Of a stretch of 27,386 bases of DNA, positions 1,133 through 17,836 are shown piece after piece; the stretch's first letter is position 1; every line of letters begins with the position of its first letter. The position numbers and the translations under genes are program-made. This DNA is from Nanopusillaceae archaeon (GTDB taxonomy: Archaea; Nanobdellota; Nanobdellia; Nanobdellales; Nanobdellaceae), in assembly GCA_049974095.1 (NCBI GenBank), contig JBMFJD010000009.1, positions 1-27,386 of the forward strand, written 5' to 3'. The notes below the pieces were generated by a model, which was not told where the DNA came from, made no database searches, and saw only the letters and a program-made list of their open reading frames with translations.

Positions 1133-1691
1133 AATCATTAGTTAACTTTATAAATTCATTTTGTATGTTTGTTAGGTGTTTTAGTACTATTGATTTATCT
1201 AAATATGTATATGATACAATATTATGATAAAAGTCTATTGGGGCTGATCTATCAATTATTTTAATTTTATCCTCCTTATTTATTTTATTTGTAAAGAAAT
1301 CAATGAATAGTTTGAGTACGGGGGTATAATCATCAGCACCTATATATAACCATATATCTGTTGGTTTATCAGTATCCTCTACAGGTTCCCCATTTACCAT
1401 TACTGGCATACCATTTTCATCTAATAGTACATCATAATCTATTATCCATTTATAACCTGCCACTTCTTTACCTTCATGCTCTTTCAACATTTGGTTAATT
1501 TCCTGATATGGGAATACCAATGTATCTGGGTAATTTACTGTTAAATATATACCTCTATCACCTATAGCTACATCAGAGGTTAAGTAAAAAAATCTTAAGA
1601 GATCGTTAAATACCTCCTCTATTTTCTTATACTTACTGTGTTGGTTGTCTTTGCTCATACTGGTTTTGTAGGATTTGTAATAATAATTCAT
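1131..1691 (-). CDS. Hypothetical protein with an acidic central region
   Basis: Long ORF co-oriented with its neighbours. The start is uncertain: the Met at 1691 overlaps the upstream gene by 59 nt, and an internal Met (MSKDNQ..., nt 1658) overlaps by 26 nt. No recognisable motifs. Confidence 0.6.
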   Translation of the reverse strand: MNYYYKSYKTSMSKDNQHSKYKKIEEVFNDLLRFFYLTSDVAIGDRGIYLTVNYPDTLVFPYQEINQMLKEHEGKEVAGYKWIIDYDVLLDENGMPVMVNGEPVEDTDKPTDIWLYIGADDYTPVLKLFIDFFTNKINKEDKIKIIDRSAPIDFYHNIVSYTYLDKSIVLKHLTNIQNEFIKLTND

Positions 1692-2073
1692 TATCTGATA
1701 TTAAGTCTTTTAAGTCTATTGGTAAGCCTAATTCTTTCATATTATTAATTAATTGTACTGTTGTACTTTTATTAATCTTGCCTAATAGTGATAATGAGAA
1801 TATTATACCTTGATAGAAATTTTTGTTTAGATTTAATTGTACATCTCTCCTCATTATTATATATAGCGATCCTACTTTATTTATTATATATTTATCTGAA
1901 TTGCCTATTACCCTATCTAATAGTTTATAGTATATTACTTGTGCTACTGTTCTACTTACCTGTTCGTGCCTTACTACCTCAGGTATTGATAGGTGTAGTA
2001 CCCCTTTCTGATCTACCTCTTTTAATAAATTATCTACATGTTGTTCAACTTCTTCTTTACTTACCCTTCCCAT
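1633..2073 (-). CDS. Hypothetical protein, possible HTH DNA-binding protein
   Basis: 146-aa ORF. The segment LSIPEVVRHEQVSRTVAQVIYYKLLDRV looks helix-turn-helix-like, but this is weak. Its upstream region carries the 20-nt element also found in the origin palindrome. Confidence 0.5.
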   Translation of the reverse strand: MGRVSKEEVEQHVDNLLKEVDQKGVLHLSIPEVVRHEQVSRTVAQVIYYKLLDRVIGNSDKYIINKVGSLYIIMRRDVQLNLNKNFYQGIIFSLSLLGKINKSTTVQLINNMKELGLPIDLKDLISDNELLLQILQNQYEQRQPTQ

Positions 2074-2159
2074 AATATATTTTATCGATAAAAATGTTTT
2101 TAAATATTTGTTTTTATGTGTTATATTAGGTTTATAAAAATTGAGTATATTTATTATAT

Positions 2160-2327
2160 ATCGTTTAAAGAAAAACTAGAAGTATTGAAGGAAACGTAAA
2201 AATAGATCCGTTTAAAGTAAGCTAGGAGCTTTAATGAACCCGATAAGGGGGATCTGTTAAAACAAACCTAGGAGCCTTGAGGGATGTGGCTTTCAAAAAG
2301 CCGAATCTGTTAAAAACAACCTAGAAG
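2160..2327 (+). repeat. Four degenerate 23-nt direct repeats separated by unique GC-richer spacers of 23, 23 and 30 nt
   Basis: R1 2160-2182 ATCGTTTAAAGAAAAACTAGAAG. R2 2206-2228 ATCCGTTTAAAGTAAGCTAGGAG. R3 2252-2274 ATCTGTTAAAACAAACCTAGGAG. R4 2305-2327 ATCTGTTAAAAACAACCTAGAAG. R3 and R4 match at 20 of 23 positions. Confidence 0.8.
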
Positions 2328-2335
2328 GTTTTTTT
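2160..2335 (+). ncRNA. Candidate ~175-nt non-coding transcript covering the repeat locus, antisense in orientation to the flanking genes
   Basis: TATA-like tttataaaaa at 2131-2140 lies about 25 nt upstream of R1, and a T7 tract at 2329-2335 follows R4 directly. The locus has locally elevated G+C (gaacccgataaggggg, gagggatgtggc...gcc) in an AT-rich background. Small hairpins are present (ccc-gataa-ggg; ggc-tttcaaaaa-gcc; aagct-agg-agctt; aacct-aga-aggtt). No ORF. Confidence 0.3.
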
Positions 2336-3245
2336 ATTCTGTTTGTCCAAAGATTATTATTAATGGTTTTTGTAAATCTTTATCTTCTGTAAATACTTTT
2401 GCGTTTACTACAGATCTTAAATACATATCAATTAATCCTTGACCCTCATAGAATTTTTTAACACCTTCTCCCATTGTGTAATATCTCATACCCTTAGATG
2501 CTTCTCTTATATCTGACATAAATAGACCTGTGTTTAGTATTACGTATTTCCATGCATCATATACATATCTGTTTTCTGGTTCTTGGTCTATTCTTTTATT
2601 ATTAAAGGATATATAGAAGTCCCATGGTTTCATTACATATTCTACCTTATCAACACCTATTTTATATTTAAGGTCTAATTCTATATAACTACCATTATAT
2701 ATATGATTTTCACCAAATATTCTAATTAATTCATCTCTTACACTTGTAAATTCTTTTCTTGATAACCAAAGTATGAATTTATCATCCCATAATACTTTTG
2801 CATGTAAATTCGTTATTAATGATGTAATTAGTAAATTCCAATCATCATTTTCTTCCATTGATACATAACCATCATATCTGGCAGATACGTATAGGTTTTT
2901 CATTGTATTACCTATTGATATACCAACATCTGGTGTTATATAACATACGTTTTTACTACAGGTATCCTCTAATTCTTTTACTAATTCTTTTAATCTTAGG
3001 TTTCTATTATAGAAAGTATAATAATCGGAACCTGGGGTAAAATCATTACCTGTATTTCTACTAATTGCCCTTAATGATGCATCTGTAAATCTAAATTTTT
3101 TACCATCTCCGGTTTCACATGTATAAAAGTTATAACTTGCTCTTCTTGTTTCAAATTTGCATTTCATTTCATTTGAATTTTCAAATATTTTTCCTATTAC
3201 GTATAGGGAATATGTTGATGAATCTATTATATATGTATCTGTCAT
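2334..3245 (-). CDS. Hypothetical protein, paralog A of a two-member family
   Basis: 303-aa ORF colinear with the neighbouring 327-aa ORF. Shared blocks include Y(I/V)IDxxxYxxYV(I/V)GK(I/M)FE(N/R)SN, YTCETxDG(K/R)KFxFxD, LxELVKELE, NVCY(I/V), and YLRS(V/I)xNAK near the C-terminus. Confidence 0.75.
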   Translation of the reverse strand: MTDTYIIDSSTYSLYVIGKIFENSNEMKCKFETRRASYNFYTCETGDGKKFRFTDASLRAISRNTGNDFTPGSDYYTFYNRNLRLKELVKELEDTCSKNVCYITPDVGISIGNTMKNLYVSARYDGYVSMEENDDWNLLITSLITNLHAKVLWDDKFILWLSRKEFTSVRDELIRIFGENHIYNGSYIELDLKYKIGVDKVEYVMKPWDFYISFNNKRIDQEPENRYVYDAWKYVILNTGLFMSDIREASKGMRYYTMGEGVKKFYEGQGLIDMYLRSVVNAKVFTEDKDLQKPLIIIFGQTE

Positions 3246-3297: not shown

Positions 3298-4281
3298 CTA
3301 AACATTATATAAGTATATATTTTTTGGTTGTTCTTCACCAATTGATACTGCCATAGGCATTAATAGATCTTTATTATCAGTTAATATTTTTGCATTTGCT
3401 ATAGATCTTAGATATATTTCTGGGTATCCTTCAAATTCTTCTACAACATATGGTATTATATATAGATTACCAGATTCATAATCTTCTATTTTCTTTAATG
3501 ACTCATAGAAGTCTGCGAAATCTATTGTTCTACTACGTACCTCATCCCACATATGATATAATGCCATATCTTCTCCTCTTTGTATCTTTTTTCCATCTAT
3601 TATATTGTATTCTTCGAATACCCTTTCTCTTACCCCATTTGGATATGTTATATATTCGTTTGTTGGTTCTTGTATATCTTCATATGTATGGGATCCTACT
3701 TTATATTTTACATGTAATGCTATATCTTCACCTGCATCTATTCTATTAAAACCAAAAGAGTTAATTATGTTTTTTCCTATTATAAGATCATATGGATATG
3801 GAATGAAATGTGTTATTTTGATATCATATAATACTTTTGCATTTAGGTCATATAAATGATTTATTATTAGTCTATTAAATTCATCATTTTTATCTATTTT
3901 GTAAAATCTAACAACTGCAAATAAATTTCTTGGTGAACCCTTATCTATTACTGTAATATTTGGTGCTACATAACATACGTTATCTGGATTATTACATAAT
4001 TTTTCTAGTTCTTTTACTAATTCATTTAGTTTTTGATTTCTATTATATATGGTAATTTGTTTTTGATCTTGGTTAAATTCATTTCCTGTATATTTACTAA
4101 TTAATTTTATTGCTCCATCGGAAAATTCAAATTTTCTACCATCACTAGTTTCACATGTATAAACATTATGCCACCTTTCTTCTTTCTCAAAATTACAGGT
4201 TAATGTATTTGATCTTTCAAACATTTTACCTACTACATATTTTGTATATAGAGGACCATCTATAACATACCTTTCTACCAT
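3298..4281 (-). CDS. Hypothetical protein, paralog B of a two-member family
   Basis: See paralog A. The conserved blocks occur in the same order, and each gene has its own upstream TATA-like region. Confidence 0.75.
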   Translation of the reverse strand: MVERYVIDGPLYTKYVVGKMFERSNTLTCNFEKEERWHNVYTCETSDGRKFEFSDGAIKLISKYTGNEFNQDQKQITIYNRNQKLNELVKELEKLCNNPDNVCYVAPNITVIDKGSPRNLFAVVRFYKIDKNDEFNRLIINHLYDLNAKVLYDIKITHFIPYPYDLIIGKNIINSFGFNRIDAGEDIALHVKYKVGSHTYEDIQEPTNEYITYPNGVRERVFEEYNIIDGKKIQRGEDMALYHMWDEVRSRTIDFADFYESLKKIEDYESGNLYIIPYVVEEFEGYPEIYLRSIANAKILTDNKDLLMPMAVSIGEEQPKNIYLYNV

Positions 4282-6962: not shown

Positions 6963-7277
6963 GTAATTATTTCTTACTCAAAAGTAGTAAAATTGTATAT
7001 TATATCATATCTTTTTAAAATATATGCAATATACAATGTAGTAAAAATTTATAAATTTTTTATAATATGTGTTAATATGTATAATATTTGTTTTTATGTG
7101 TTCACATATTTATATTTGTTATATGTATTATTATGTGTATATGTTATTATTATTACTAAGTAGTAGATATGTATATATATTTATAAATATATCTATAAAA
7201 AAGAAGATAATATAGAAATAATATATATTTAAAAAATATAAATAGCTAATAATATGGCAAAAAAGAGATGTTATCAC

Positions 7278-16972: not shown

Positions 16973-17228
16973 TATATATTTAGATGATGGAGTAGAATTA
17001 AACAAATTATTTAGTATGCTAAATGATGAGAATATTAAGAAAATTAGGGAATTTTTAATTAAATATGTAAATAGCAATAATTACTTAGAGTTAATAAATG
17101 ATACAGATATCCAAAATAATCAGGATATAATATATATAATGAAGTATCTTGGTATTATTACTGAAGTATCTGGTAAATACTATATAATTATACCTGTAGC
17201 GAAAACACTTATAAATATTTGTCAGTAA
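16953..17228 (+). CDS. Small hypothetical protein (possible winged-helix)
   Basis: 91-aa ORF overlapping the previous gene by 20 nt. No strong motifs. Its 3' end contains the promoter motif of the next gene. Confidence 0.5.
   Translation: MVCIPYDIYLDDGVELNKLFSMLNDENIKKIREFLIKYVNSNNYLELINDTDIQNNQDIIYIMKYLGIITEVSGKYYIIIPVAKTLINICQ
17204..17223 (+). promoter_or_regulatory. Extended TATA promoter motif aacacttataaatatttgtc
   Basis: The same 20-mer occurs at 18043-18062. The motif starts 33 nt upstream of the ATG at 17237. Confidence 0.55.
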
Positions 17229-17236
17229 TATATAGT

Positions 17237-17836
17237 ATGGAATACAAATTAGAAGTTTTATCTCCAATATTGTCAGGTTTATCAAACGATTATTTTAGCT
17301 TTAGGGTTTTTACTAAAATAGATTTTTCAGATTTTAGGGTAGTATCTAAGATTAAGTTAACAGCAGAAGATCTTACTGGATATGAAAAAGAGATGGAAGA
17401 AAAAGGTAGAGACGTTGTACTAAAGGAAATTTATGAGAAGAAAAAAGATGCCATAGAGAAAGAATTATTAAGATTAGGGTATGTAAAGCTTGGATATTTA
17501 TTTCCAAGAAAGCATTTTAATATAGATTCTATAAAGACAAAAGATGATTATGTTAATTGGATAGATTATATTGCATTATTTTCAAGAGGTATAGTATTTA
17601 CTTTAGAAAAAGAACATAAAATTAAGGCAAAGATAGAGGATATTAAACCAATTAATGTATCTTTAGGGGTACACTTATTATATTATGATAATGCAAAGAT
17701 TGTAGTTGCTTATGAAGCAATACTACCAGGTTCTTTATTCTCTATAACATTTGATTCTAAAATAGAACCAGATATTGTTGTTCGTATTGGAAGGTTAAGA
17801 AAATTCGGATTTGGTAGGGTTATTATAAAAGAATGA
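17237..17836 (+). CDS. Orphan RAMP/Cas6-like protein (candidate)
   Basis: I prefer the ATG at 17237 (MEYKLEV...) over the TTG at 17219 because of the promoter spacing. The N-terminal strand YKLEVLSPILSG, the internal YEAILPGSLFSITF, and the C-terminal glycine-rich loop VVRIGRLRKFGFGRVIIKE match the RAMP signature (hG-x5-GhG followed by a terminal beta strand). Confidence 0.45.
   Translation: MEYKLEVLSPILSGLSNDYFSFRVFTKIDFSDFRVVSKIKLTAEDLTGYEKEMEEKGRDVVLKEIYEKKKDAIEKELLRLGYVKLGYLFPRKHFNIDSIKTKDDYVNWIDYIALFSRGIVFTLEKEHKIKAKIEDIKPINVSLGVHLLYYDNAKIVVAYEAILPGSLFSITFDSKIEPDIVVRIGRLRKFGFGRVIIKE

Follow-up and report, generated by a model that had tools for sequence, protein, structure and literature searches.

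The window analysed here, a 27,386-nt stretch of DNA that makes up most of contig C9 in a nanoarchaeal genome bin (G000; 764 kb in 48 contigs, 93% complete), carries a short locus of four related units at positions 2163-2336 of the plus strand, the first of which closely resembles the CRISPR repeats of related nanoarchaea. The locus lies between two minus-strand genes (1633..2073 and 2334..3245) on a contig that is probably a virus or plasmid of Nanopusillaceae, tiny hot-spring archaea, with a gene content of three MCM-family proteins, one thermopsin and mainly orphan proteins. Contig C9 has a GC content of 28% compared to 23-25% in the core contigs, and the distribution across the bin is bimodal, with the large core contigs on one side and C6, C9, C11-C13, C16 and several small contigs (28-31%) on the other, which suggests that several mobile elements or foreign contigs have been binned together with the nanoarchaeon. 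A second, syntenic copy of the locus neighborhood is found on contig C6 of the same bin. Further homologues are located on two metagenome contigs with the same gene-locus-gene arrangement, L029 (GCA_023270135.1) and L105 (ERZ1669248), and, in divergent form, on contig C69 of another genome bin (G013:C69); we refer to the loci on C9, C6, L029 and L105 as the close homologues. The locus and its flanking genes comprise the following features, given in coordinates of the window.

1633 to 2073, minus strand: gene of a 146-aa protein, divergent from the shared intergenic region
2074 to 2159, no strand assigned: promoter-bearing intergenic stretch common to the locus and the divergent 146-aa gene; no other part of the neighborhood is as well conserved
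2131 to 2140, plus strand: TATA-like box tttataaaaa, ca. 23-30 nt upstream of unit 1, putative promoter element
2163 to 2191, plus strand: unit R1 (pseudo-repeat 1), GTTTAAAGAAAAACTAGAAGTATTGAAGG, a near-authentic CRISPR repeat with the handle-like end ATTGAAG
2192 to 2209, plus strand: pseudo-spacer 1, 18 nt, 28% GC, of variable length among homologues
2210 to 2237, plus strand: unit R2, GTTTAAAGTAAGCTAGGAGCTTTAATGA, with hairpin AAGCT-AGG-AGCTT at 2219-2231
2238 to 2255, plus strand: pseudo-spacer 2, 18 nt, 56% GC, with hairpin CCC-GATAA-GGG at 2239-2249
2256 to 2283, plus strand: unit R3, GTTAAAACAAACCTAGGAGCCTTGAGGG
2284 to 2308, plus strand: pseudo-spacer 3, 25 nt, 40% GC, with hairpin GGCTTT-CAA-AAAGCC at 2288-2302
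2309 to 2336, plus strand: unit R4, GTTAAAAACAACCTAGAAGGTTTTTTTA, with hairpin AACCT-AGA-AGGTT at 2318-2330 that runs into the T7 run
2329 to 2335, plus strand: T7 run, putative terminator of a plus-strand RNA
2334 to 3245, minus strand: gene of a 303-aa protein whose stop codon overlaps the T7 run

A repeat search recovers the units as one family of four copies with start-to-start distances of 46, 46 and 53 nt, just as an earlier reading of the window from its letters (the sequence-only reading) had reported. Within the 27-kb window, the core pattern GTTWAAANNNNNCTAGRAG occurs three times, always in this locus, where shuffled sequences lead one to expect 0.06 matches and none of 100 shuffles reached three. 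A hairpin-aware regular expression with a 3-bp stem around an AGR loop, run on both strands of the 764-kb bin (1.5 Mb), gave three matches here, three in the C6 locus and four elsewhere. The TATA-like box, the T7 run and the hairpins of R2 and R4 are likewise present where they had been described, and R1 holds a smaller hairpin of its own (ACT-AGA-AGT at 2175-2183). The repeat length of 23 nt had been set too short: the natural unit measures 28 nt (GTTWAAA...CTAGRAG plus 9-10 nt), and in this 28-nt frame, which natural repeats share, the four units can be aligned gap-free. With mutual identities of 60-80%, the units differ from the near-identical repeats of a canonical CRISPR array.

Searching related genomes with the locus, much as the sequence-only reading had proposed for the repeat consensus, leads to natural arrays of the family. 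By BLAST of the locus against 19 family genomes, long arrays in the same-genus genome G013 match unit 1 at 92% identity, and we read the natural repeats directly from the arrays of G013 (variant A, GTTAAAGAAAAATTAGAAATATTGAAG; variant B, GTTTAAAGTAAATTAGAAATATTGAAAG), G005 (GTTTAAATTAAATTAGAAATATTGAAAG) and G002 (GTTTAAACTAAATTAGAAATATTGAAAG); within each array, the repeats are essentially identical. These repeats of the relatives are associated with type I-B and III-A cas genes: in G005, a complete genome of 669 kb, the array follows a full type I-B locus (cas6, cas4, cas7, cas5, cas3, cas1b, cas2), and in G013, the variant A array adjoins cas1 and the variant B array adjoins cas6 and csm3. 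Away from its array, G002 also carries two solitary copies of its repeat (G002:C41:5347-5374 and G002:C14:7086-7113; L360 and L361) that are preceded by the same leader-like sequence of ca. 40 nt (GATAGAAATAGATA..TAGTAAAACTAAG) and may represent orphaned pairs of leader and repeat or additional solitary repeat units.

R1 is identical to the G013, G005 and G002 repeats at 23-26 of 28-29 positions (25/29 for G013 variant A, 24/29 for variant B and 23/29 for the type I-B repeat of G005), compared to a maximum of 22 and a mean of 16.1 for 5000 random 28-mers of the AT-rich window aligned to the same natural repeats. R2, with 19-22/29, is borderline against this null; in C6 and L029, this unit opens with 12 nt (GTTTAAAGTAAA) that agree fully with G013 variant B. 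Membership in the repeat family used by cas-bearing genomes is a property of R1 only, and the CRISPR affinity of R3 and R4 is drawn from their being paralogues of R1 and R2. At a relaxed threshold, Rfam gives a weak match to CRISPR-DR44 at R1 (19 bits); at the gathering threshold, no Rfam match was obtained in the window. R1 is oriented in the sense of CRISPR RNA (crRNA): ATTGAAG forms its 3' end (ATTGAAAG in C6), the TATA-like box lies on its 5' side, and natural arrays run from the leader towards ...ATTGAAAG with degenerate terminal repeats at their far end. A covariance model built from 12 units and the G005 repeat and searched against the 19 genomes matched only true arrays, the units of C9 and C6, and one new locus, G013:C69. 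The link to CRISPR is considerably stronger than could be told from the letters alone, with R1 a member of a real repeat family of nanoarchaea from the same family.

The reading that we favor from the sequence and its conservation, and judge about evenly probable (ca. 0.5), is that a mobile element carries here a small gene for a non-coding RNA that imitates host CRISPR repeats and occupies host Cas6/Cascade. Transcription from the TATA-like box would start near 2161 and end at the T7 run at 2335, yielding an RNA of ca. 175 nt that would present the near-authentic R1 followed by the degenerate R2-R4, all of which keep the 5' GUUWAAA, a hairpin with AGR loop and a handle-like 3' end. Host Cas6 would bind this decoy RNA instead of genuine crRNA precursors (pre-crRNA); once R1 is cleaved, those subunits of the type I-B and/or III-A complexes that bind the handle or form the backbone would bind the decoy as well. 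Because the short, self-folded segments between the units could not serve as normal guides, the resulting complexes would be unproductive and immunity against the element would be weakened. Among the options left open by the sequence-only reading, a processed multi-unit small RNA comes closest to this interpretation, and a decayed array or a terminator of the 303-aa gene persist as minority explanations that are weighed below.

The five loci share a common plan of a promoter, one authentic-looking repeat, a variable middle of degenerate units, and a final hairpin with T-run. Conservation of the units in related elements had been named as a point on which the sequence-only reading would stand or fall, and the architecture is indeed kept throughout. 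The TATA-like box is retained in L029 and L105, appears weaker in C6 (TTTATGAAAA) and has a TATA-like counterpart in G013:C69 (TTTTTATAATAAAA) ahead of the first unit, while the hairpin AACCT-AGA-AGGTT leading into a T-run is kept in all five loci, including unit c of G013:C69 (GTTAAATCAAACCTAGAAGGTTCTTTTTTT). The middle of the locus changes more freely: pseudo-spacer 1 carries insertions of 6-7 nt in C6 and of 16 nt in L029, the latter copying the pseudo-spacer 2 motif. All four close homologues have the same 5' part of R3 (GTTAAAACAAACCTAG). In C6, this unit makes up the perfect hairpin AACCT-AGA-AGGTT, with TTTGAAAG after it; the 3' arm of R3 is altered in C9, L029 and L105 and can pair there with the 5' arm of pseudo-spacer 3 instead.

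The divergent locus G013:C69 reads, in order, TATA-like box, GTTAAAAATAAATTGGAAATCTTGAAGG (unit a), AATAA, GTTTAAAGAAAAATAAACCTAAAAAAACC and GTTAAATCAAACCTAGAAGGTTCTTTTTTT, so that its spacers measure 5 nt or are missing entirely. Unit a is identical at 23/28 positions to natural repeats of the same genome bin, which also has matching arrays and cas genes. As in C9, the locus is antisense and lies behind the stop of one gene and ahead of the start of the following one, and the flanking proteins show at most a short motif match to those of C9 (E 0.034 for the positionally equivalent 270-aa gene). An 18-nt stretch, ATCGATAAA[A/C]ATGTTTTT, is common to window positions 2086-2103 and to positions 1191-1208 of this contig (L365); it belongs to the non-coding leader of the 146-aa gene in C9 and to the first codons of the equivalent 192-aa gene in G013:C69. 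Beyond these loci, a metagenome scan found one true homologue (L105) among 71 chance matches, pattern scans of IMG/VR gave chance matches only, and in 401 genomes of the phylum a search by pattern met only the own loci and one probable chance match.

Three compensatory stem changes distinguish the four close homologues. In R1, the ACT/AGT stem is replaced by ATT/AAT in L029 (C-G to T-A), and ATT-AGA-AAT is the form of the natural repeats; in R2, the third pair of the stem is G-C in C9 and L105 and A-T in C6 and L029; and in pseudo-spacer 3, GGCTTT-CAA-AAAGCC of C9 stands against GGCTC-GATAA-GAGCC in the other three, again with a change from C-G to T-A. The stem of pseudo-spacer 2 is invariant in the four homologues and its loop differs in L029. 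In a covariance analysis, one of the checks proposed by the sequence-only reading, 78% of the cells in the five stem columns are paired over 16 units and repeats, and the covariation score of 0.267 compares to 0.096 in shuffles (none of 500 attains 0.267) and at most 0.08 in slid controls.

At the same time, the locus evolves quickly. Its identity is 81% to C6 (flanking genes 83-91%), 78.5% to L029 (94.6%) and 88.7% to L105 (94%), and the intergenic stretch 2074..2159 is 91% identical to C6 and 98% to L029. The locus also diverges faster than flanking third codon positions in comparison with L029 and L105, and falls within the third-position range (70-87%) for C6. Fast change together with kept stems suggests an RNA engaged in an arms race, though relaxed constraint or partial decay is likewise compatible with a locus that outpaces its flanks. 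We considered that the locus might be a decaying captured CRISPR fragment with no present RNA function, its region amounting to the terminator of the 303-aa gene plus spacer DNA before the next promoter. The lower conservation and frequent indels agree with this view, as do the degeneracy of R2-R4 and a carrying bin that has no CRISPR-Cas system to counteract. Furthermore, R4 read on the minus strand forms the hairpin AACCT-TCT-AGGTT followed by GTTTTT (with its T5) directly past the stop codon of the 303-aa gene, so that this unit can act as the terminator of that gene and may be a bidirectional one. However, R1 is close to natural repeats in all five loci and has in L029 both of the changes that turn it into the natural ATT-AGA-AAT, decay would not be expected to yield three compensatory stem changes, and the architecture with TATA box and T-run persists in G013:C69 despite almost unrecognizable flanking proteins. 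A terminator would moreover need R4 only and not ca. 150 further bases. Taken together, decay seems unlikely to us, if still deserving serious attention.

The opposite strand, on which all neighboring genes are encoded, was considered as well. Read-through of the 303-aa mRNA past its weak T5 terminator would produce anti-repeats, with R1 being 86-90% complementary to natural repeats, and these might pair with host pre-crRNA and block its processing by Cas6. The TATA box and the T7 run nevertheless frame the plus strand, which also folds better (-41.7 kcal/mol, z = -2.2) than the minus strand (-32.8 kcal/mol, z = -1.5), and the handle-like ends are meaningful only in the crRNA sense. In addition, AU-rich duplexes of 28 nt would be weak at hot-spring temperatures, and we regard a functional minus-strand RNA as very improbable.

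The segments between the units are no ordinary spacers. They measure 18, 18 and 25 nt as compared to 38-56 nt for the spacers of related arrays (n=64), and they are not unique as had been stated: segment 1 is related to segment 2, and L029 contains the extra copy of the segment 2 motif. Their reported richness in G+C holds for segments 2 and 3 but not for segment 1, whose 28% equals the background, and segments 2 and 3 are self-complementary and form the small hairpins listed above. A search for targets of the three pseudo-spacers, another of the proposed checks, covered the own bin, the G005 cas locus with its leader and the G013 cas contigs and revealed only matches of 8-12 nt at chance level; pseudo-spacer 2 has no match of at least 14 of its 19 nt outside the homologous loci. 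The R2 tail shares 12 nt with the G005 leader, where about two such matches are expected by chance. Neither the own bin with its other element-like contigs nor the homologous elements contain a match to the pseudo-spacers. Outside these searches, window positions 2184-2207 (the R1 handle and pseudo-spacer 1) match 23/24 positions within a 199-aa open reading frame of G009, a cas-less genome of the same genus (G009:C1:577268-577291), probably by chance in AT-rich DNA.

These properties rule out a working mini-CRISPR array, the reading that the geometry of the locus had first evoked: its repeats are degenerate and only 60-80% alike rather than identical to those of a host, its spacers are short, related and self-folding rather than full-length and directed at a related element, no targets were found in the searches described, and the spacers are nearly absent in G013:C69. 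A more serious proposal is that the locus is a Cracr array, i.e., a viral crRNA-like RNA (crlRNA) processed by Cas6 into crRNA mimics whose pseudo-spacers of 18-25 nt guide Cascade to repress a host promoter (of cas genes or of a CRISPR-guarding toxin) or a rival element. The layout is that of published Cracr arrays with degenerate repeats, short pseudo-spacers and their own promoter on a mobile element without cas genes, R1 has a proper handle, and conservation within the locus is highest in pseudo-spacer 2 and in the 5' part of R3. Yet complementarity to the G005 I-B locus and leader, the G013 cas contigs and the own bin amounts to 8-12 nt at chance level. This search covered two related cas loci, where a guide would call for at least nine PAM-proximal matches to a cas or creT promoter (or to a host CreA/CreR spacer), and targets may therefore have gone unsampled. 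Pseudo-spacers 2 and 3 are hairpins with compensatory stem changes that conserve structure and not a guide sequence, pseudo-spacers 1 and 2 are mutually related, and G013:C69 makes do with spacers of 5 nt or none. We thus find guide function unlikely, a little more so than decay.

Functions unrelated to CRISPR would be another structured small RNA or a set of operator or iteron sites in DNA, with 13-bp inverted repeats at a spacing of ca. 46 bp that might be bound by a dimeric protein such as the 146-aa protein. Each unit indeed contains a 5+3+5 inverted repeat centered on CTAG-R-AG, the locus adjoins the promoter of this putative regulator, and a 20-nt element of a putative origin (7083-7102) recurs just upstream of the locus at 2103-2122. 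For operators, the variation of the half-sites (ACT/AGT, AGCT/AGCT, ACCT/AGGT) would be intolerable to a single DNA-binding specificity and is tolerable in RNA stems, and the G-U pairs of the predicted helices work only in a plus-strand RNA. The likeness of R1 to CRISPR repeats spans the whole 28 nt and so extends beyond the palindrome, and the locus matches no Rfam family, so that a function outside the CRISPR context appears quite improbable.

Mobile elements carrying mimics of CRISPR repeats have become known in 2019-2026. To our knowledge, experimental demonstrations of repeat-mimic RNAs of the Racr and Cracr types are to date limited to bacteria and their phages, and we are aware of almost no viruses or plasmids of DPANN archaea. 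The closest counterparts of the locus, if it is a decoy, would be Racrs, viral solitary repeat units such as RacrIF1 and RacrIC1 that are close to the repeats of their likely hosts, have no functional spacer and have been proposed to sequester Cas6 together with backbone subunits (Camara-Wilpert et al. 2023, PMC10651486). The C9 locus resembles them in its R1 match to repeats of the host lineage, with a stem pair that covaries with the natural repeat, and in its setting on a putative mobile element with no cas family found in the window. It differs in having four tandem units, three of them strongly degenerate, where a Racr has one, and in its DPANN archaeal hosts with type I-B and III-A systems, whose natural repeat is predicted to be unstructured.

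Cracr arrays are multiplexed transcription units of degenerate repeats with pseudo-spacers of 21-24 nt (18-25 nt here) that reside on phages or plasmids, some of them with repeat units altered so as to impair Cas6 processing (Liu et al., bioRxiv 10.1101/2024.10.29.618823). Their pseudo-spacers match cas or creT promoters, whereas those of the C9 locus have no target among the sequences searched, fold on themselves, are mutually related and are dispensable in one homologue. Mini-CRISPR arrays of archaeal viruses, e.g., of the Saccharolobus portogloboviruses SPV1 and SPV2, similarly represent array-like DNA on an archaeal mobile element that has no cas genes and relies on host Cas proteins (review PMC11656645). 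There, host-identical repeats enclose one or two full-length spacers targeting related viruses; here, the repeats are degenerate and the spacers, of half the normal length or less, have no targets in the sequences searched. Finally, the CreA/CreR crRNA-like RNAs of CreTA modules, found with type I-B systems in Haloarcula and others, also consist of degenerate repeats flanking a short pseudo-spacer behind their own promoter, and CreA depends on type I Cas proteins (bioRxiv 10.1101/2024.10.29.618823). CreA is embedded in cas loci beside a toxin gene and protects CRISPR, unlike the C9 locus, which lies on a probable mobile element without an identified toxin partner and with no cas genes found in window or bin.

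The mimic proposed here would thus be a tandem, degenerate relative of Racr units with the outward architecture of a Cracr array and without a sign of guide function. New would be its lineage (DPANN nanoarchaeal elements with type I-B/III-A hosts) and its form, which combines one authentic unit with degenerate units and structured non-guide spacers. A conserved tandem mimic on Nanopusillaceae elements would extend this kind of counter-defense to DPANN archaea and offer a sequence-based link from orphan elements to their hosts, pointing in this case to nanoarchaea with type I-B and III-A systems and not to the crenarchaeal hosts of these nanoarchaea. This design further suggests that duplication of one captured repeat can give rise to a tandem decoy, and it may be intermediate between solitary Racrs and guide-bearing Cracr arrays.

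Several observations weigh against a repeat-mimic RNA. The G000 bin that carries the element has no cas genes and no arrays of this repeat type, and searches across the whole bin found none of the Cas1, Cas6 and RAMP families. None of 82 spacers from G005, G013, G002 and two small arrays of the own bin matches C9, C6, C69, L029, L105 or L030. On their own, R3 and R4 are identical to natural repeats at 16-18/28 positions and thereby behave like random AT-rich 28-mers, and for R4 the role as terminator of the 303-aa gene offers an explanation by itself. The specificity of the covariance model is partly circular, with R1 units and one natural repeat in the training set, and the plus-strand fold of the whole locus is only modestly better than that of shuffles (z = -2.2). 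In structure prediction, natural repeats and R1 come out as unstructured, and none of the unit hairpins as stable at 75 C; hairpin mimicry may therefore not be what Cas6 reads, and recognition may instead rest on the conserved 5' GUUWAAA segment. Some Cas6 enzymes are known to bind unstructured archaeal repeats via their 5' part, which makes recognition of this kind plausible.

The window also encodes an orphan protein of 199 aa (17219-17836) that has been called RAMP-like and ends in a glycine-rich GRLRKFGFG motif. The sequence-only reading had placed it at 17237..17836. Copies are found on three other element-like contigs, at G000:C6:21836-22429 (65%), G000:C13:8971-9552 (44%) and G001:C8:11737-12324 (33% identity). 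No sequence match was found in Pfam, NCBIfam, PHROG or PDB, leaving the RAMP fold without support, and an AlphaFold model from a 5-sequence alignment (pLDDT 43) is too poor for a structure search. An obligatory partnership of protein and locus is unsupported since C13 and G001:C8 encode the protein as well and yielded no repeat-like locus. One could speculate that a single transcript acts as a multivalent, structure-hardened decoy mimicking two co-resident repeat variants of the host, the type I-B-linked form and the form linked to cas6-csm3 in G013, and that the 199-aa protein, which accompanies the locus on C9 and C6, binds this RNA to form a self-contained protein-RNA particle able to disable both the type I and the type III immunity of nanoarchaea as an anti-CRISPR; we consider this scenario a long shot.

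Of the flanking genes, the one encoding the 146-aa protein is syntenic in C6, L029 and L105, and its product belongs to no Pfam or PHROG family. The 303-aa protein and the product of its upstream neighbor (3298-4281; 327 aa) are tandem paralogues with 39% identity. Besides this paralogue, relatives of the 303-aa protein were found only on C6, L029 and L030, with none in 21 genomes of the order. No tRNAs were found in the window.

Within the G000 bin itself, the two small arrays lie on contigs C21 (2523-2827) and C44 (1-150), both of 28-30% GC, and have unrelated repeats, GATTCCGAAGTACTAGTTAGTATGGCAG (in reverse-strand reading) and the Sulfolobales-style GAATCCATGAAATGGAATTGAAAG, respectively. 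Since no Cas1, Cas6 or RAMP families were found in the bin, these two contigs may come from other organisms of the community.

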